DNA from: Thermoanaerobaculaceae bacterium
GTDB lineage: Bacteria > Acidobacteriota > Thermoanaerobaculia > Multivoradales > UBA5704
Direction of reading: 5' to 3'
DNA length: 64,000 bases
NCBI GenBank assembly: GCA_963712665.1
Contig: CAVQIV010000024.1
Location: 271,525-335,524, forward strand
Positions 2,073 through 43,119 of the stretch are shown here, in pieces. A model generated the notes under the pieces. That model worked only from the letters and a program-made list of their open reading frames with translations. It was not told the origin of the DNA and ran no database searches. Numbering within the stretch: the first letter of the stretch is position 1; the number at the start of each line of letters is the position of its first letter. Position numbers and translations under genes: made by a program.

Positions 2073-2825
2073 ATGGGCCTGCAGACCGCCGAGGCGCTGA
2101 TCCTCGACGTCAGGGATTTGCACGACCGCGACCGGATCGTCACCTTTCTCACCCGCGAGCATGGCAAGAGAAGCGGCGTGGCCAAGGGCGCGCGGGTGAA
2201 GCACAGCCGCTTCGGCGGCCAGCTTCAGCCGCTCGCCAAGGTGCAGGTGACCTGGTTCGAGCGCGACGGCCGGGATCTCGTCCGCGTCTCGTCCGTAGAG
2301 CTGATCCGCGTCGCCCAGTCGCTCCAGGCGGACCTCGAAGGGCTCCTTCTCGGCAGCTATCTCGCCGATCACCTCCTGGAGTTCGCCCAGGAAGGGGAGG
2401 CTTCGGACCACCTCTTCCGGCTGCTGGATTCGACCCTCCAGGCCCTGGCCGCGGGGGTGGATCGGGATCTGGCCACGCGCTATTTCGAGGCCTGGGTGCT
2501 GCGCATCGCCGGAGTCTTTCCCGCACCCCACGTCTGCCCATCCTGCGGCCGGCCGTTCCCGCCGGAGGGGGCAATGCTGCCGCGCTCGGGGGAGACCATG
2601 CTGTGCCTCGACTGCGGGGGACCTTCCGGCTTCGCCGTGGCGCCGGAGACGCTGGAATTCCTCTGCCGCATCGGCCGCGAAGCCCTGCCCGCTGTGGCCG
2701 GGAGGCCGCCAGGGCCCGGGGTGCTCCGCCAGGCGGAAGCCGTCTGCATGCAGGTGCGGCGCGCTTTCCTGCAACACGAGCTGCGCAGCTACGACGTCAT
2801 CCAGACCACGCTCGCCCGGCTCTGA
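2073..2825 (+). CDS. recO: DNA repair protein RecO
   Basis: N-terminal OB fold ([36 protein letters not shown]) and a C-x2-C...C-x2-C zinc motif. The upstream part of ORF 1659..2825 is antisense to the Kir gene. Confidence 0.85.
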
Positions 2826-2859
2826 TACGCTACCCGCTCTTCTACAACGGAAAGGACCC

Positions 2860-3758
<899 letters not shown>

Positions 3759-5900: not shown

Positions 5901-6161
5901 TCACCCGAAGGGGAGGCAGGTTGCTGTCCGGATTTTGACCTGTCCCTGACGTCCTTTGCTCTGCTCAGCGTGCTCGAGGACGGCTTCGATCTGCTCGCGG
6001 GTCACACCCGGAAACCAGTCCAGGAAATCGTCCACGCGTGCCCCGTCTTCGAAGTTCTCGAACAGAGCTTTGACGGGCACGCGCGTACCCTTGAAGAGCC
6101 AGGCGCCGCTGACCCTTCCCGCATCCCTTTCAACCGCTGGACACTGATTCCAATCGAGCAT
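5901..6161 (-). CDS. DUF433 domain protein (antitoxin-like HTH)
   Basis: GAWLFKGTRVPVKALFENFEDGARVDDFLDWFPGVTREQIEAVLEH matches the DUF433 pattern. No PIN/DUF5615 partner is adjacent. Confidence 0.7.
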   Translation of the reverse strand: MLDWNQCPAVERDAGRVSGAWLFKGTRVPVKALFENFEDGARVDDFLDWFPGVTREQIEAVLEHAEQSKGRQGQVKIRTATCLPFG

Positions 6162-6307
6162 GGCTCTAGGATAAGGCTTGGGTGCGCACGACGGCAAGCC
6201 CCGGATGGCTCCTCCCCTCCGCGACCGCGTCTAGTGTTGACTACTTACGCGAGATCGGCCACCCCGATGCCCGCTACGCCCCTCCGGGATCGTGTAGGAT
6301 CAACGCC

Positions 6308-6571
6308 ATGGAACCTCCGAAGATCAAGGTCGTGGGTCGGCGCCGAGTCGAGACTCGGTCTCTGGCCGATACGGACCGTCTTCTCCGGACCGCTTGGGCC
6401 CTTCGTGGAACCCCGGCCCTCGTCCCCAAGGGGGTATATCGTTTCCGCAGCTTCGAGGAGGCGGACGAATGGATGACGAGGATGATGGCCAGGACTCACG
6501 TGCGCCAACGATCGAAGATCTCGCCAGGGTCTGCGACTCCCTCAACCGGTCCGAAGCCCAGTACATCCTGA
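6308..6571 (+). CDS. hypothetical small protein (C-terminal GVYRFRSFEEADEW motif)
   Basis: ATG start ORF. It overlaps the next gene by about 100 nt, so its true 3' end is doubtful. Confidence 0.25.
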   Translation: MEPPKIKVVGRRRVETRSLADTDRLLRTAWALRGTPALVPKGVYRFRSFEEADEWMTRMMARTHVRQRSKISPGSATPSTGPKPSTS

Positions 6572-6978
6572 TCGGCGGCTTTGCCGTCATCGCCCACGGC
6601 GCCGGCCGGACGACCAAGGACATCGATTTCCTCATTGATCCGTCGCCCGAGAACGTCGCTCGGGTCAAGGCAGCGCTCAGCGTCCTCCCGGACAACGCCG
6701 GCGCGCTCATCGCCGATACGGACGTCGAGACCTACAAAGTCGTCCGGGTGGCGGACGAGGTGGTGATCGACCTTATGGGAAGCGCCTGCGGCGTGTCCTA
6801 CCAGGATGCGGTCAAGGACGCAGAGGTCCTGGAGATCGAAAGGGTTCAAGTCCCGGTAGCCAGCAAGCAGACCCTAATCCGCACCAAGGAGACGATTCGT
6901 CCTTCCGACCAGATCGATCGGGAGTTCCTGGCAGCATTGATTCGCGAAGAGGGCGCAGAAAAGCGTCCACGCCGGTGA
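6469..6978 (+). CDS. nucleotidyltransferase-fold protein (GG..A...HG..R.T.DIDF motif)
   Basis: YILIGGFAVIAHGAGRTTKDIDFLIDP is typical of small uncharacterised NTase-fold proteins. Codon usage is coherent. Confidence 0.6.
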   Translation: MDDEDDGQDSRAPTIEDLARVCDSLNRSEAQYILIGGFAVIAHGAGRTTKDIDFLIDPSPENVARVKAALSVLPDNAGALIADTDVETYKVVRVADEVVIDLMGSACGVSYQDAVKDAEVLEIERVQVPVASKQTLIRTKETIRPSDQIDREFLAALIREEGAEKRPRR

Positions 6979-7274: not shown

Positions 7275-7554
7275 GTATATGAACTTTCCCATCCAGTATA
7301 TGGGGCGGCAAAAAATCGAGCGGGTACGCTACTCTCCCTATATGGACTGAGAAAAATTCTATATGGATTGAGCCGTTGGGTGTATGAACAGGGCTCCGCG
7401 AGGGGTGGGGACACCCTCCGGGCAGGGGTGCGAGCGGCTCCCCAGCGTCTCCCGAGGGCTGGTCTATATGGTGGCTCGACGAGTCTATATACTTTGGGTG
7501 CTCCCCAGGCCCTTCAGACGCTCGCGGTATATGATTTTTTGGCGAAGGTATATG
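7275..7554. repeat. phased motif array 1: STATATG on an exact 21-bp lattice
   Basis: Motif starts at 7275, 7296, 7338, 7359, 7380, 7464, 7485, 7527 and 7548. All spacings are multiples of 21 and the spacers are unrelated. Confidence 0.85.
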
Positions 7555-7875: not shown

Positions 7876-8724
7876 ATGGAAATGACGAGAGTCAGAGGTT
7901 TGAGCTGTGTGTTGATGCTGTTGTGCGGGTTGCTGTCCATCGCCGCGAACGCTCAGGTGCTGCAGCCGCCAGTGAGCGATCACATCGTCTACACCCCGGT
8001 GAAGGGCGCCATCGTCTCCAAGGCCGGGAACATCATCAACCACGGTGGACCGGTGATCACCTCGGCCAAGGTGGTCTTCATCTTCTGGGGCCCGAACTTC
8101 GCCAACGCCGCCCATCCCGATCACACCTACGCCACCACGCTGCAGGCCTTCCGCAACCAGTTCGGCACCACCGGTGAGTACAACACCATCACCCAGTACT
8201 CCGGCATCCAGTTGGCGAACCTCGGCTCGGGATCGGCCGACTGGTTCGATACCTCGACGCCGCCGACCAACGTCACCGACTCCGCCGTCCGCTCCAAGGT
8301 CACCTCCTATCTGGCGACCCACACCTTCAACAACAGCACGATCTACGAGGTCGTCATCCCCAGCTCCTCGTACTCGTCGAGCGGCAGCAGCACCTCGTGC
8401 GGCGGGCCGCGCCTCGCCTACTGCGCCTATCACAGTCACTACAGCACCAGTGGCCACGACGTGAAGTACTCCATCGAGCCCTATCCGAGCTGCAGCGGCT
8501 GCAAGGTCTCCGGCTGGTCGGACGTGCAGAACCAGGAGCACTTCACCTGCCACGAGACCCGCGAAGCCGTGACCGATCCGGACCTCAACGCCTGGTTCGA
8601 CAGCAGCGGCGCCGAGGCCGACGACAAGTGCGCCTGGTCGCCCTCGCCGTTCATCGGCACCGGCGGCTACGGCTATCAGTACGAGTGGTCGAACCTGACC
8701 GGCTCCTGCGTCAGGACGCGGTAG
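7876..8724 (+). CDS. secreted cysteine-containing protein, weakly PHI-1/EXORDIUM-like (paralog A)
   Basis: Signal peptide ending ANA-Q. Motifs NHGGPVITSAKVVFIFWGPNF, AYCAYH and HETREAVTDPDLNAWF. SD-like ggagaa lies upstream. Confidence 0.8.
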   Translation: MEMTRVRGLSCVLMLLCGLLSIAANAQVLQPPVSDHIVYTPVKGAIVSKAGNIINHGGPVITSAKVVFIFWGPNFANAAHPDHTYATTLQAFRNQFGTTGEYNTITQYSGIQLANLGSGSADWFDTSTPPTNVTDSAVRSKVTSYLATHTFNNSTIYEVVIPSSSYSSSGSSTSCGGPRLAYCAYHSHYSTSGHDVKYSIEPYPSCSGCKVSGWSDVQNQEHFTCHETREAVTDPDLNAWFDSSGAEADDKCAWSPSPFIGTGGYGYQYEWSNLTGSCVRTR

Positions 8725-14370: not shown

Positions 14371-14590
14371 AGAGCTCCCCCGCCCAAGACCCTCACCCCT
14401 GCCCCTCTCCCGCCCCCTCGCCACCCCCCTCACCGGGAGAGGGGGCCCGGCTGGAGCTATCTTGCTGTTCGTCCTTGTTGTCCTTGCTGTCCCTTCTGTC
14501 CTTTCTGGCTGTTCTCCCTCTTCTCCCGGTGAGGGGGGTGGCGAGGGGACGGGAGAAGAGGGCCGGGGTGATGAGGGTCTTGGGGGGCGC
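14371..14590. repeat. composite palindromic REP/MITE-like element, copy 2 (about 65-bp imperfect inverted arms, loop with 9-nt GTCCTT repeats)
   Basis: The arms are reverse complements. The loop gttcGTCCTTgttGTCCTTgctGTCCCTtctGTCCTTtct has 9-nt periodicity. Confidence 0.75.
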
Positions 14591-20859: not shown

Positions 20860-21311
20860 TGTCGCGACTTCCCCAAAAACGATGCACCTTGCCCATCGAT
20901 GCCGCAACATAAGGATGAGATACGACATCTTAACCATAGATGCCGCATTCTATGCATAGATGCCGCACCATAGCGATAATATGCGGCATTTCTAGCAAAG
21001 TTGTGCGAGAGAATCTTAGGGCGGGACAACTCTCCTAATTCTGCCGCAGACTGACTACAAGTGTCGCGTCATAAGTTCAGCATGAGGTATTCTGCTCGTA
21101 AATGCCGCAATATAATTCTATTTGTCGCAGAGTTCTTGCATTTGCCGCAGAACATCCGGGAAATACCGCAAATTTGCCTCCGTGCTCCGAGCTAACGGAA
21201 GGATGCCGCAATCTATGCGTCGGCTGGGGTTGCGGGCTGGACAAAAAGGGAGATTTCGGGATATTGTCGCAACCTGGAGACTTGTTGACGCATCTCTCGC
21301 CAGACGCCGCA
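20860..21311. repeat. phased motif array 2: palindromic TGCSGCA (TTGC-S-GCAA) sites every 20-21 bp
   Basis: Site starts at 20860, 20900, 20941, 20961, 20982, 21042, 21062, 21103, 21123, 21143, 21164, 21204, 21265 and 21305, which is 14 of 23 lattice points over 22 periods. The tract is AT-rich in a GC-rich genome. Confidence 0.8.
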
Positions 21312-21396
21312 TCATTCCCATCGAGGAGGCGTGGCAGCGAGAGGACGGACCGCCGTGGCGGAGCCCGTCGCAGCGTCTCCTCAGGAGGGAGCGCCG

Positions 21397-21897
21397 ATGA
21401 ATCCGAACCTCTCCGTGGCGCAGATCGTGACCGATCTGGAGACGCAGATCGCGCATTTCCAGAGCCAGGAGGCCTTCCACGCTCAGCAGGAGGCCTTCCA
21501 CCGGGAGCAGCGGGAGCTCAACGCGGCCGAGCTGGCGAGCGTACGCGAGCGCTACGAAGCCTTCAAGACCGCGGCGCAGGCGGTTTCCGAAGCCGCCGAC
21601 CGCGCCAGCCAGGTCATCCGCGCCCGGCAACTGGAGGAGGACACGAGCCTGCGGATCACCACCGTCAGCAAGCTGATCGCCCGCGTGGTGGAAGCCAAGC
21701 CCGAGCACGAGACCTTCGGTCCCACGGCCGTGGCTCAGGAAGTCAACGCCCGTTTCGGCAAGAAGCTCCGCCGCCCCCTGGACAGCCGCGCCGTCTCCGT
21801 CACTCTCCGGCGAATGGAGAGCGACGGGCGGATCCATCTCGTGCAGAAGGGGAGGGCGTTCCACGAGGCGGTGTACACGCGGGAACCCTCGACGTGA
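21397..21897 (+). CDS. hypothetical protein, N-terminal coiled coil plus C-terminal winged-helix-like region
   Basis: AGGAGGGA SD 7 nt before the ATG. The C-terminus SRAVSVTLRRMESDGRIHLVQKGRAFHEAVY resembles a wHTH wing. It lies directly downstream of array 2. Confidence 0.6.
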   Translation: MNPNLSVAQIVTDLETQIAHFQSQEAFHAQQEAFHREQRELNAAELASVRERYEAFKTAAQAVSEAADRASQVIRARQLEEDTSLRITTVSKLIARVVEAKPEHETFGPTAVAQEVNARFGKKLRRPLDSRAVSVTLRRMESDGRIHLVQKGRAFHEAVYTREPST

Positions 21898-24134: not shown

Positions 24135-24260
24135 GGAGCAAGGACATAAAGGACAGCAAGGACAGAAAGGACGACAAGGACGTCAAGGACACGGGGGATC
24201 GTACCAAGTCCGGTATTTTGTCGTCCCTGCAGTCCTTGTTGTCCTTGCTGTCCTTTCAGC
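24135..24260. repeat. long hairpin built from 9-nt-periodic AAGGAC repeats (likely bidirectional terminator, related to the REP loop at 14461-14510)
   Basis: The left arm AAGGACataAAGGACagcAAGGACagaAAGGACgacAAGGACgtcAAGGAC pairs with the right arm GTCGTCCCTgcaGTCCTTgttGTCCTTgctGTCCTTt. It lies between convergent genes. Confidence 0.8.
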
Positions 24261-39812: not shown

Positions 39813-40601
39813 ATGGCCCGTATGTCCGCGTTTCCTCTCCAGCGCGATGTCGAATACCCGGAATCCGACGGCCAGCCCATGGCGGAGACAGACCTCCATC
39901 GCGACGAGATGTTCGACCTGATCGAGGGGCTCGCCCTCCGGTACCTGAACGTGCCGGACATCTACGTCAGCGGCAACCTCTTCTTCTACTACGTGCAAGG
40001 GGACCCGCGGGCGGTCGTGGCTCCCGATGTCTTCCTCGTCCGGGGTGTGCCCAAGATGAAGCGAGGGACCTACAAGCTCTGGGAGGAGGGCCGCGTGCCT
40101 TCCCTGGTCATCGAGGTGACGTCGGACAGCACGAAGGACGAGGATCTCGACAAGAAGAAGTCGGTCTACCGGCGCCTGGGAGTCGAGGAGTACTTCCTCC
40201 ACGATCCCTGTCAGAACTATCTGAGTCCGCCCCTGCAGGGTTACCGTCTCGTGAACGGCCGTTATCAGCCTCTCTCGCCGCGCCCGGACGGCTCACTGCG
40301 CAGCCGGATCACGGGGCTGGACCTCCATGTCGAGGGCCAGAAGCTCAGGCTGGTAGATGCTGTCACGAACAAGCCGTTGCCCTGGGGAGAGGAGTTGACA
40401 GCAGCCTTGAACCGCGAAACGGCTGCCCGTGAGTTGGCAGAGGAGCGTGCCAGCAGGGCAGAGGAGCGTGCGAACCGGGAAGCCGCTGCTCGCGAGCTGG
40501 CAGAGGAACGCGCCAACCGGGAAGCCGCTGCCCGGCAGTCCCTGGAAGAGGAGTTGAATCGTCTGCGACGTGAGATCGAGGGGAAGCAGAGATCCGAGTA
40601 G
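39813..40601 (+). CDS. Uma2-family (DUF820) restriction-endonuclease-like protein with repetitive coiled-coil tail
   Basis: ESDGQPMAETDLHR..., VAPDVFLV and PSLVIEVTSDST..D...K...Y motifs. The tail repeats AARELAEERANREAA. Confidence 0.85.
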   Translation: MARMSAFPLQRDVEYPESDGQPMAETDLHRDEMFDLIEGLALRYLNVPDIYVSGNLFFYYVQGDPRAVVAPDVFLVRGVPKMKRGTYKLWEEGRVPSLVIEVTSDSTKDEDLDKKKSVYRRLGVEEYFLHDPCQNYLSPPLQGYRLVNGRYQPLSPRPDGSLRSRITGLDLHVEGQKLRLVDAVTNKPLPWGEELTAALNRETAARELAEERASRAEERANREAAARELAEERANREAAARQSLEEELNRLRREIEGKQRSE

Positions 40602-40631
40602 ACCGTACGCAGCATCGCGCCCTGACTTTCT

Positions 40632-41099
40632 GCTGCAAATCACCCTCGGCGGTCCATAGGCCCCGCTCCCTGGCTATCCCGCCTCCTCTCGTGTGCCGCA
40701 AGCATCGATCTCCCGATCGCCGGACCCGGCACGGCCTCCTCGGGCCTCGAGAAAAGTGTTGCAAATTCCCTTGATTGGAAGGCGGGTGGCCTTCTGTGAG
40801 CCGCAAGACCCACGAATTCTGTTGCAAATCCTCTCCATGAGAAGGCGAACTCACGGGGCGAAGTCGGCTGATCCGGGAATTTCGCGGCAAAATCCTGGGA
40901 TTTTGCGGAAAAAGCGAGGACATACGCGGCAGTTTACCTGTCTTTTGCGACAAAATACTAGAGTTTCGCAGCAGACTGGAAGGGTCGAGCTTCAGGACCC
41001 AAGGGTCTTGCAGCATAATCCATGGGTCTTGCAGCTCACTGCATGGAGCCCCATGGCTGACTTGGGGGATTTGCGGCAGATTTCTCACAGTTTGCAGCA
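40632..41099. repeat. phased motif array 3: TTTGC-N-GCAAA-type sites on an exact 21-bp lattice
   Basis: G(C/T)NGCA cores at 40632, 40695, 40758, 40800, 40821, 40884, 40905, 40926, 40947, 40968, (40989), 41010, 41031, 41073 and 41094. All offsets are multiples of 21 over 22 periods. The tract lies between convergent genes. Confidence 0.85.
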
Positions 41100-41188
41100 C
41101 ACAACCTCAGCCCGCCTATGGCAGTAGAACCCCAAGTCTCAGGGCTCAGGTTCAGAGATACTGGCTTTCGGATTCAAGGATCTGCTTG

Positions 41189-41524
41189 TTACTGGTGGCG
41201 AGGTGCTGAAAGGGTCGCGGGGGACTCCACCTCCGGGTGGGACAGCCCGAACTCTTCGCGGATCTCGCGGAGACGTTCCTCCCTCTCGTCCAACCTCTGC
41301 TCGAATTCCTTGAGGTTCCTCAGATCCTCCTCCGTCACTCGAGGGACGAGCTGCTGGGTTCGGCTATCCAGCGAAGCGAGGCGCTCCTGGTCTTCGGGAG
41401 TGAAGGTCCCGCCGCCGTGCTTTCGCGCCAGCAGCTCGAAGCGCTCCGAGTTCACGGCCGTCGCTTCGGCATCCTCGACCGGGCTTTTTTCTGGGAGATC
41501 GTGCCGCTGGCGACGGTGAATCAT
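41189..41524 (-). CDS. hypothetical protein (charged, coiled-coil-like), third gene of the RR-HK operon
   Basis: 111-aa ORF starting 21 nt after the kinase stop. No family recognised and no clear SD. Confidence 0.4.
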   Translation of the reverse strand: MIHRRQRHDLPEKSPVEDAEATAVNSERFELLARKHGGGTFTPEDQERLASLDSRTQQLVPRVTEEDLRNLKEFEQRLDEREERLREIREEFGLSHPEVESPATLSAPRHQ

Positions 41525-41545
41525 GGGGAAAGCATACCCCAGATC

Positions 41546-43119
41546 CTACGCTCCCGGCAGCACCACCTCGAACCTCGCCCCGCCCTCCCCGCGGTTTTCC
41601 GCCCGGATCGCCCCGCCGTAGCCCTCGACGATCGCCTTGGCGATGGCCAGGCCCAGACCGGTGTGGCCGTCGCGGGCGTGGGGCTCTTCGGGGCGGTAGG
41701 TGAAGAAGCGGTCGAAGATGCGGTCGAGATCGGTTTCGGGGATGCCGGGACCCTGGTCGTCGATGCGCACGGCGGCGGTGGTGGGGTCCCGGTCCAGGGT
41801 GACGGTCACGGTGCCGCCGGCGGGGGAGAAGCTGCGGGCGTTGTCCAGGAGGTTTTCGAAGACCTGGAGGAGGCGCTCGGGACGGGCGCGGACGGAGATG
41901 GGGCCGCCCGGCGTGTGGAGGGCGAGCTTCACGATCCGGATTATCGGCGCGCCGGCGGAATCCCTCGGCCGCTTCTTGCAGCAAGGCGTTCAGATCCACG
42001 ACGGTCGGTGCCTCGGTCTCCAGGCGGGCGTCGATCTCGCCGATCTCCCGCAAGCCGGTGAGCAGGCGCTCCATGCGGGCGACCTCGCGCTGGACCAAGG
42101 GCCACGAAGCGCTCGCGGTCTCGCGGGTCGTCGATCTCGGCCAGCAGCTCGGTGGCGGAGCGGATGGAGGCGAGCGGGTTCTTGAGCTCGTGGGAGACGT
42201 CGGAGGCGAAGGCCTCCAGGGTGTGCTGGTGCGCGGCGAGGCGGGCGGTGAGCTGCTCCAGGGCGCGGGTGAGGTCGCCGATCTCGTCCGCCCGGTGGGT
42301 GCCGCCGAAGCGCCGGCGCAGACGGCCGCGGCGGTCGAGGAGCTCGTTGGCCTCGTCGCGGAGACGCCGGATGGGATGGGTGATGGTGCCGGCCAGGAGG
42401 AGGGAGAGGATGGCGGCCACCACCACCGAGCCGAAGAAGACCTTGAGCACGTCGAGGCGCACCTGGTCCAGCTCGCGCAGGATGCGGACGGTGGACTGCG
42501 AGACCAGCACGGCGCCCACCACCGCGCCGTGGCTGCGCACGGGGATGGCGCTGTGCAGGGTGACCGAAGGGCGCAGCCGCTCGCCCCCCGTGGGCCGGAC
42601 CGTGGCGCCGTATTTTCCCGTGAGGGCCGTCCGGACCACGGCGGCGGGGTAGGGCTCGGGAGGCGGAGCGGGCCATCGCGTGGGCTGCGGCAGCGGCGCG
42701 CGCACCCGGCGGTAGAGCCGGTAGAGCCCGGCCGCGACCTTGTATAAGAGGTTGTCCCGCGCCTTGGCGGTGGACCGGGAGTCTTCGAGCCGGGCTCCTC
42801 CCGAGGGCCCAGCCGGCTGGAGTCGGCGAGGAGGGCGTGGCCACCGCCCGCAGCCCGCCCGAAGATCCGCAGGCGCGCCTCGGTGCGCTGATCGAGGCGC
42901 CGCAGCAGCGACTCCACAACCGGCGCGGCTCAGCTCTCCCTGCTCGCCCAGGGCAGCGGCCAGGAGCCGGCCCTGCTGCACCATGGAGCGCTCCTGATCC
43001 TCCAGGAGCTGCTGCTCGTAGACGCCCAGGTAGAGGAACCCCGCCACGGGAAAGAAGACCAGCAGGATGTTGAACAGCAGCAGCCGGATGGAGATCCGGG
43101 AGGGGAGCCTCAGGCGCAC
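41546..43119 (-). pseudogene. transmembrane sensor histidine kinase (HAMP-HisKA-HATPase), several frameshifts as sequenced
   Basis: N-terminal TM helix, HAMP (THPIRRLRDEAN), H-box FASDVSHELKNPLASI, ATPase LLDNARSF...GTGLGLAIAK. The pieces lie in ORFs 41941..43119, 41364..42917 and 41546..41932. Confidence 0.8.

Follow-up and report, generated by a model that had tools for sequence, protein, structure and literature searches.

A 64,000-nucleotide stretch of DNA from a Thermoanaerobaculaceae bacterium (contig CAVQIV010000024.1, positions 271,525 to 335,524 of the forward strand), referred to below in its whole length as the window, contains at 40626..41108 a lattice of short pseudo-palindromic sites, array 3, that is real, statistically secure and non-coding. 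Array 3 is probably an orphan platform, bound in trans by the small protein p167 or by a close paralogue of it. Its combination of site and spacing recurs beside p167-family genes in other genomes, and the link of array 3 to this specific, conserved and uncharacterised protein family is new here. A sequence-only reading of the window had pointed out three such lattices, numbered arrays 1 to 3, of which array 2 lies beside the p167 gene.

A phased lattice with two inverted arms

Array 3 lies inside a 587-bp intergenic tract (40602-41188) that runs from stop codon to stop codon between two convergent genes, one for a Uma2-family endonuclease and one for a 111-amino-acid (aa) hypothetical protein (p111) at the end of a response regulator-histidine kinase (RR-HK) operon. 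As a whole, without assignment to a strand, it comprises 23 lattice points of 21 bp, 14-15 of them filled with the core TGC-N-GCA; the cores span 40632-41094, that is 22 x 21 bp, and the consensus of the filled units is AATTTTGCGGCAAAATCCATG. All core positions listed in the sequence-only reading are present. The expression G[CT]NGCA has 12 matches in 40550-41200, 11 of which fall at phase 0 modulo 21 from 40632, while one-mismatch sites stand at 40905 (GCGGAA), 40947 (GCGACA) and 41031 (GCAGCT) and the site at 40989 is weak.

The periodicity was evaluated against shuffled controls. Fifteen positions in the tract 40602-41188 carry at least five of the six bases of TGCNGCA, and 14 of the 15 share a single phase of period 21, with no more than four near-matches in phase at any other period from 15 to 29. 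In 2000 dinucleotide-preserving shuffles of the tract, each taken at its best period, the number of in-phase sites averaged 2.1 and never exceeded 5, so that the 21-bp lattice claimed from the letters alone proved real. Moreover, a motif-agnostic scan of the whole 64 kb, using all 3+3 gapped words at periods 15-35, returned at least five in-phase copies at period 21 alone and in just three places, namely array 1, array 3 and a coding NEEL repeat at 54.8 kb within a CheB/CheR-PAS kinase region. The Rayleigh lattice score of array 3 is z = 11.0, and in a Rayleigh scan of the window array 3 ranks first and array 2 second, with nothing else near.

Conservation is restricted to the core. The core positions G, C, G, C and A hold 1.3-2.0 bits against 0.1-0.4 bits at most flank positions, the centre base carries near-zero information and is free to vary, and identity at lag 21 is only ~0.40; because the units have so little in common outside the core, Tandem Repeats Finder detects just two short fragments of the array. 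The tract is also AT-enriched, with a GC content of 0.52-0.57 compared with ~0.70 in the surrounding coding DNA.

Beyond what had been noted before, array 3 is laid out as two inverted arms. The left arm (40626..40835, - strand) has five sites (40631-40637, 40694-40700, 40757-40763, 40799-40805 and 40820-40826) and half of its lattice points are empty; on the + strand its sites read GCYGCAA...CCC, the reverse complement of the right-arm unit. The right arm (40878..41108, + strand) has ~10 sites of GGG(A/T)(T/C)TTGC(R)GCA, with cores at 40883, 40904, 40925, 40946, 40967, 40988 (weak), 41009, 41030, 41072 and 41093. Between them lies a centre of two empty lattice points (40836..40877, no strand assigned), toward which the GGG/CCC ends of both arms point, and the four right-arm sites closest to it have near-symmetric A/T flanks. 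A position weight matrix made from the flanks of the right-arm sites alone scores all five left sites 5.5-14 bits higher as reverse complements, and a 32-nt inverted repeat shared by the arms (I1, 40796-40827 / 41008-41039) is 84% complementary.

The composition of the tract is not that of a gene. Codon-position GC is flat in all six frames (0.52-0.60), and GC at third codon positions (GC3) in the array 3 frame is 0.59 versus 0.77-0.94 in neighbouring genes. Of the six frames, two run open through the array; the open + frame places the variable centre base at codon position 2 and the conserved G at position 3, the opposite of what coding constraint would give. The 144-aa translation of the open frame has no homologue among 5.8 billion proteins, and neither open frame matches a Pfam family. 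A conserved heptad-repeat protein, named in the sequence-only reading as the outcome that would speak against it, was thus looked for with a negative result.

A scan for sigma-70-like promoters and intrinsic terminators found neither in the array 3 tract, and no intrinsic terminator was found between the two convergent genes. These data support the earlier view that array 3 is not a promoter operator for an adjacent gene, and describe it as a non-coding, helically phased multi-site element. A sigma-54/sigma-70 promoter reading of the array unit itself was rejected by inspection, the GG-to-GC spacing being 6 nt and not 12 and no promoter having appeared in the scan.

The p167 family and its arrays

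The sole family member in the window is the p167 gene (21397..21897, + strand), which stands beside array 2 and 19 kb from array 3 and encodes a 166-aa protein. By its modelled structure p167 looks like a DNA binder, and it is the putative ligand of TGYNGCA arrays. The AlphaFold2 model, built on a 43-sequence alignment with a mean predicted local distance difference test score of 88, shows an uninterrupted helix over residues 7-83 followed by a C-terminal three-helix winged helix with a beta wing. Its best PDB matches in Foldseek are the DNA-binding domains of Fur, Mur, Zur and PerR, followed by PadR and the Orc1/Cdc6 winged helix; the listed top 50 also include ArsR-type winged helices, eS25 and DUF3253 (PDB 2ns0, rank 42), and no partition protein. 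At the sequence level, the AbiEi winged helix of PADLOC matches p167 with E = 3e-4, and Pfam DUF3253 (PF11625) covers residues 91-155 at 22.9 bits against a cut-off of 22.1, leaving the N-terminal helix outside the model. A PDB profile search reached a best E of 0.08 and returned no sequence-related solved structure and no homology to StbA, Par or KfrA proteins.

At least 195 homologues of uniform length are known just as 'hypothetical' or 'DUF3253', a few of them with a precomputed DUF3253 match, and a profile search extends the family to 449 clusters at 50% identity. The names of the homologues point to Thermoanaerobaculia/Acidobacteriota alone, and tblastn with p167 found no match in 72,556 plasmids or 50,697 phages. 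Among the invariant residues, His28 and His35 fall in the long helix, and R131, L137, R138 and R139 in the putative recognition helix. The two histidines, seven residues apart, belong to a family-wide motif at p167 residues 25-36 (QEAFHAQQExFHREQR), which might bind a metal or a ligand or mediate contact between helices. Literature searches returned nothing on DUF3253 or the p167 family and, for the motif strings, primers only.

Nine family loci were available for comparison, comprising p167 itself, seven homologues (76% to 45% identical) whose DNA was fetched, and a further locus, L347. A TG(C/T)NGCA-type lattice of 19.75-21 bp lies beside the family gene in eight of the nine (L365, L367, L369, L372, L376, L377, L347 and array 2/p167), with Rayleigh z of 6.6-15.9; across 3173 background windows from the same loci (191 kb), z never exceeds 5.1. 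For the homologue loci this Rayleigh test on loose cores replaced a strict exact-6-mer lattice finder, which had missed their arrays because the cores are degenerate. When the array part of the module is defined by a core TG(C/T)NGC(A/G), at least seven copies, a 19.7-21-bp lattice and a non-coding AT-enriched tract, array 3 agrees with it, with 14 in-phase sites at 21.0 bp, but it lacks the family gene directly beside the array that also belongs to the definition.

The arrays vary in motif and placement. L365 carries GATATGYCGCA at 20.2 bp, L369 a mixture of ATGCCGCA and TTGCGGCA at ~20.8 bp, and L372 at least 16 GTGCCGCR sites on an exact 20-bp lattice whose left arm is inverted; in L376 and L377 the array lies upstream of the family gene, in L367 downstream of it, and in L374 the lattice is weak and its motif has drifted. 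L347 was picked by DNA pattern alone (WTGCNGCA three times at 21 bp) and was then found to hold the gene of a p167 homologue with 35% identity (tblastn E = 8e-22), with ~30 TTGC(N)GCAA sites over the 700 bp upstream of it; TGTTGCAAATC and TTGCGGCAAAAT are common to its array and array 3. In L367 the array sits between the family gene, p164, and the 3' end of a Uma2 gene that is 55% identical to that of the window (E = 1e-70). As this is the same adjacency to a Uma2 3' end as in array 3, a Uma2-array-p167 cassette may be ancestral, with the protein gene replaced.

Furthermore, the putative recognition helix and the array motif appear to co-vary across the nine loci, a pattern that is suggestive. 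The window protein and the L377 protein, 44% identical overall, both have the helix SRAVSVTLRR and both stand beside ATGCSGCA arrays; the VAAT/VAAK helix variants (L374, L376) pair with GCGACA/GTCGCA, and the AASLFLRR helix of L347 pairs with TTGCWGCAA.

Array 2 (20893..21312, + strand) consists of 12 sites of (A/T)TGCCGCA(A/T), nearly all in one orientation; it is situated in the AT-rich gap preceding the p167 gene and ends ~85 bp before that gene. Its lattice gives R = 1.0 at 20.25 bp and a Rayleigh z of 9.9. The TGC-S-GCA core that arrays 2 and 3 had been said to share is indeed common to both, and the period of array 2 has to be corrected from 21 to ~20.25 bp. Likewise, the proposal that the three lattices form one system holds for arrays 2 and 3, which are linked by core and by the lattice syntax of the p167 family at eight of nine loci, and is unsupported for array 1, which has another motif and no known link to p167.

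No gene besides the family member is conserved next to the module, and no conserved nucleoside triphosphatase (NTPase) was found by Pfam among the window neighbours and at eight homologue loci. At five loci (L365, L367, L369, L374 and the window) the neighbours are often of toxin-antitoxin or defence type, including VapBC/PIN, PemK, Phd, HicB and CHAT as well as TIR-TPR, an AAA_23 ATPase, an SNF2 helicase and Uma2, which suggests that the modules lie in variable genomic islands.

Mechanism, objections and rival explanations

With the arrays associated with p167, array 3 shares core, lattice, AT enrichment and a layout in two orientations, and it is accordingly read as an orphan array of that module. 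In the mechanism proposed, it would serve as a non-coding, helically phased platform of ~15 candidate binding sites, each a 7-bp pseudo-palindrome TGC-N-GCA extended to GGGWYTTGCRGCA. Co-occurrence, predicted fold and helix-motif covariation point to a small winged-helix protein of the p167 family as the most likely ligand, one winged helix reading one core, and sites two helical turns apart would face the same side of the double helix. Coiled-coil pairing of the N-terminal helices between neighbouring or distant protomers may then give cooperative binding and a continuous nucleoprotein coat like that of plasmid centromeres. Array 2 would autoregulate p167, and array 3, as a second platform without a gene, might titrate the protein, be bridged to array 2 or halt read-through from one convergent gene into the other.

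Several points weigh against an orphan platform for p167. The sample is small, with nine family loci of which one, L374, has a weak lattice. Array 3 has no family gene beside it, and tblastn found no second p167 paralogue in the window. The flanks differ, array 3 preferring TTGC(G/A)GCA(A/G) and array 2 ATGCCGCA(A/T), so that some paralogue encoded outside the window could be its true partner. The two winged helices of a classical dimer need more room than a palindrome of 7 bp offers, which makes the binding geometry guesswork. For other degenerate 21-bp lattices, in five contigs found by pattern scanning (L026, L066, L074, L081 and L092), no p167, Uma2 or p111 homologue was found within 8-kb blocks. 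Finally, array 3 is missing at the same locus in a relative and is hence dispensable or recent: in the metagenomic contigs L001/L002, 88% identical in DNA across the RR-HK operon, an HNH remnant and a truncated Uma2 gene stand where it would be.

Comparison with relatives therefore indicates that array 3 is not conserved at this locus, which seems to be recombinationally active. Farther relatives have an intact HNH gene at the array 3 position, and no array lies downstream of the p111 homologues in L001-L004. Past residue 72, p111 and its homologues no longer align in identity, consistent with a breakpoint within the 3' end of the gene.

The main rival to the orphan-platform reading, considered unlikely, is that array 3 is a decaying remnant of a p167 paralogue, array and Uma2 cassette such as that of L367, which has lost its protein gene and is now inert. 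It would account for the missing p167 gene, for the empty half of the left-arm lattice points and for the position of the locus in a recombination hot spot where an 88%-identical relative has other remnants, and the homologous position 3' of Uma2 in L367 does hold an array together with the p164 gene. On the other hand, the register of array 3 is held over 462 bp with no indel, and the information retained in five core positions and not in the flanks points to continuing selection on the cores; in addition, the gene of p167, a protein that could act in trans and whose own array has this 7-bp core, lies at a distance of 19 kb. Even if array 3 were only a relic, it would document the movement and decay of arrays in variable islands rich in toxin-antitoxin genes.

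There is a slim chance that a different protein binds array 3, either a p167 paralogue outside the window, of the TTGCWGCAA class seen in L347, or the neighbouring OmpR-type response regulator. The array 3 flanks (TTGC..GCAA, GGG upstream) are unlike those of array 2 and resemble the L347 array, and a response-regulator operon is adjacent. However, L369, whose recognition helix is nearly that of the window protein, mixes ATGCCGCA and TTGCGGCA in one array. The response regulator is further disfavoured because the RR-HK-p98 operon of L001/L002 is 88% identical yet lacks the array, and because OmpR-family sites, which are direct repeats at ~10-11-bp spacing, are unlike 7-bp palindromes at 21 bp.

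A transcribed structured or multi-site 'sponge' RNA, one of the roles offered in the sequence-only reading, is very improbable. The tract does fold better than its shuffles (z = -3.5 on the + strand, z = -3.6 on the - strand), and its position downstream of two convergent genes makes read-through transcripts plausible. Nevertheless, the extra stability is alike on both strands, so that the inverted arms are a sufficient explanation, and no Rfam match at E <= 10 lies within array 3, the two weak matches in 40000-41700 being outside it and far under their gathering scores. The lack of a promoter or terminator in the scans, a palindrome whose 1-nt centre forms no hairpin alone, an exact two-turn spacing that matters for duplex DNA and not for RNA, and sister arrays in promoter regions beside a DNA-binding protein gene all argue in the same direction. 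A long RNA hairpin between the arms was rejected separately, since the complementary segments are not collinear.

A heptad-repeat protein or a neutral minisatellite of coding origin is scarcely credible, for although 21 bp equal seven codons, two frames are open and most 21-bp GCNGCA lattices among the matches listed in public collections are coding Ala-Ala heptads, array 3 departs from these in its low GC3, in its variable codon position 2 and conserved position 3, in having no protein homologue or Pfam match, and in a low lag-21 identity with conservation confined to the core.

A wider proposal, regarded as distinctly unlikely, is that p167 and its arrays form an undescribed, NTPase-less chromosomal nucleoprotein system of Thermoanaerobaculia, in which the coiled-coil winged-helix protein polymerises on 10-30 two-turn sites and its long helices bridge the home array to gene-less arrays, building loops, anchors, insulators or roadblocks between convergent genes. 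If it were true, the system would be a bacterial counterpart of plasmid segrosomes used for chromosome architecture. 

Of the roles suggested earlier, a nucleoprotein-filament or centromere-like site was the right class of idea. A true plasmid centromere or iteron origin is what fails, given the chromosomal setting, the lack of par or rep genes and the absence of the protein from the collections of plasmids and phages. Part of a 981-kb contig, the window has the content of an ordinary chromosome, with sulfate assimilation genes, PFK, glucoamylase, CreBCD-like genes and chemotaxis-type kinases as well as toxin-antitoxin and nuclease genes, and a Pfam scan of window genes, which did not take in every open reading frame (ORF), showed no rep, par, ParB-like or phage genes.

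The orphan-platform reading matters in several ways. Some 450 clusters named 'hypothetical' or DUF3253 would gain a concrete role, predicted to be TGYNGCA binding on a two-turn lattice, and the cis-element concerned is unusually large and clean, with up to ~30 phased sites. Acidobacteriota, a poorly studied lineage, abound in soils, and very little is known about how they regulate genes or organise their chromosomes. A home array together with an orphan array would offer a simple system for studying cooperative coating, titration and DNA bridging outside plasmids, and the helix-motif covariation could be developed into a recognition code.

Known systems, neighbouring genes and other repeats

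By analogy, array 3 and p167 resemble plasmid centromere or operator arrays and are a member of none of the classes compared here. A close parallel in layout is offered by stbS/StbA of plasmid R388, where segregation without an NTPase and repression are combined on ten phased 9-bp repeats in two sets, and where StbA also binds smaller arrays at other promoters (bioRxiv 10.1101/2022.04.29.490116). The likeness consists in a small helix-turn-helix (HTH) protein gene directly behind a large phased array, in the lack of a dedicated NTPase and in one protein serving several arrays, as proposed for p167 with arrays 2 and 3. By contrast, the stbDR repeats are direct, 11 bp (one turn) apart and plasmid-borne, and StbA has an N-terminal HTH and no long helix, whereas array 3 has two-turn spacing, palindromic sites, inverted arms and a chromosomal location. 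No relation between StbA and p167 was detected by sequence in the PDB profile search or among the listed Foldseek matches.

Type II and Ib partition centromeres (parC/ParR of R1, pB171 and pSK41; parH/ParG) are tandem phased short repeats, often in two blocks, which a small dimeric protein of the ParR/ParG type coats cooperatively to form a continuous superstructure and which double as autoregulatory operators. Phased repeats beside the gene of a small, predicted DNA-binding protein are seen for array 2 with p167; array 3 has the repeats, and the gene is 19 kb away from it. ParR and ParG are ribbon-helix-helix proteins working with ParM or ParA, whereas p167 is a predicted winged helix with no conserved NTPase gene, and the contiguous 10-20-bp repeats of these centromeres differ from a 7-bp core in a 21-bp frame. 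As regards a partition centromere in general, there is no adjacent ParA, ParM or TubZ NTPase gene, and the array is not on a plasmid.

KfrA of IncU/IncP plasmids is an alpha-helical coiled-coil protein with one DNA-binding domain and an iterated operator with both orientations, which autoregulates, oligomerises through its helical tail and aids plasmid maintenance (PMC7783346). With ~355 aa and an N-terminal HTH followed by a C-terminal tail, it has the reverse of the p167 domain order; its operator is five contiguous 9-bp repeats compared with 10-30 sites at 20-21 bp, and it is plasmid-borne, with the partners KfrC, KorB and IncC.

Array 3 also recalls iterons in its spacing, in its probable winged-helix binder and in its position away from the home site. 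The iterons of theta plasmids and phage origins are 17-22-bp repeats at ~21-22-bp spacing bound by winged-helix Rep proteins, and extra clusters of them at a distance from the origin titrate or handcuff. Rep has two winged-helix domains and about twice the size of p167, which has a single winged helix after a 77-residue helix, and iterons are conserved over most of their length, unlike the array 3 units, which are conserved only in the core. No rep-like Pfam family occurs among the scanned window genes, and no DnaA-box context was seen, no search specific to DnaA boxes having been made. Equally, the KorB operator O_B of RK2, TTTAGC(G/C)GCTAAA, is a 13-bp palindrome with a single central S and A/T-rich ends, of the same general form as TTTTGC(G)GCAAAA; its sites, however, are single and dispersed with no lattice, and KorB is a ParB-family protein, no gene for which was seen among the scanned window genes.

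Of the genes that flank array 3, the Uma2-family endonuclease gene (39840..40601, + strand; Pfam Uma2, E = 8.7e-18) adjoins it with its 3' end. Immediately before array 3, the C-terminal tail of this gene (window 40400-40560) consists of a 42-bp coding repeat resembling EERANREAAAREL; a derivation of array 3 as an extension of this repeat was rejected, the repeat being 3 bp out of phase with the lattice. The Actinomycetota contig L061 likewise has a 42-bp GCNGCA repeat just past a Uma2-like gene. On the other side, the p111 gene (41189..41524, - strand), last of the RR-HK operon, lies outside the element. The HK gene of this operon (window 41546-43119, - strand) seems split between reading frames, with HATPase_c on a 128-aa ORF; a 392-aa ORF carries the sensor, HAMP and HisKA domains and is seemingly out of frame in its middle part, a 517-aa ORF overlaps in a third frame, and the L001 orthologue is intact at 525 aa. 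The split could reflect frameshifts, a pseudogene or an assembly error.

The public collections were scanned for GCNGCA four times at 42 bp (genome contigs) and for WTGCNGCA three times at 21 bp (viral and metagenome contigs). Among the matches listed, most were coding Ala-Ala heptad repeats or high-identity minisatellites, the coding repeats including phage fibre-like proteins, H1-like KKAAAPA and a CheR NEEL repeat. In a further set of degenerate 21-bp lattices, conservation is limited to a core that contains GCNGCA; these are L092 5-361 and L066 2771-3044 (both metagenome-assembled genome (MAG) AM-2014_bin-1020), L026 5401-5897 and L074 1611-1943 (both MAG MFD09495.bin.2.10) and L081 430-745 (Thermoanaerobaculia). 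Example units are CTGAACGCGGCAGCC (16 copies) and GACGACGCGGCATAAG (13 copies), and two arrays in one genome have the common extended core ACGCGGCA. Some of these lattices may be coding, as L026 overlaps a 433-aa ORF.

Array 1 has TATATG sites at 7276, 7297, 7339, 7360, 7465, 7486, 7528 and 7549, one of them TATATA, in a single orientation and with all offsets multiples of 21. Upstream of it are two toxin-antitoxin-like ORFs, DUF433-like at 5901-6197 and nucleotidyltransferase-like at 6394-6978, and ~330 bp downstream is a secreted-protein gene (7884-8724); no partner protein was identified for array 1. Shorter 9-bp repeats also occur in the window, with six copies of AGCAAGGAC at 24137-24191 and the reverse complement GTCCTTGCT in four copies at 24223-24255 and again at 14471-14507. 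Lastly, the farmland metagenome contig L003 carries at 2650-3017, ~2 kb from its homologue of the p111 gene, ~17 tandem 21-bp units of GTGGCATTCGTCACGAATGGC with the palindromic core CATTCGT-N-ACGAATG, an array that differs from array 3 and that its source annotates as the end of a 142-aa gene.

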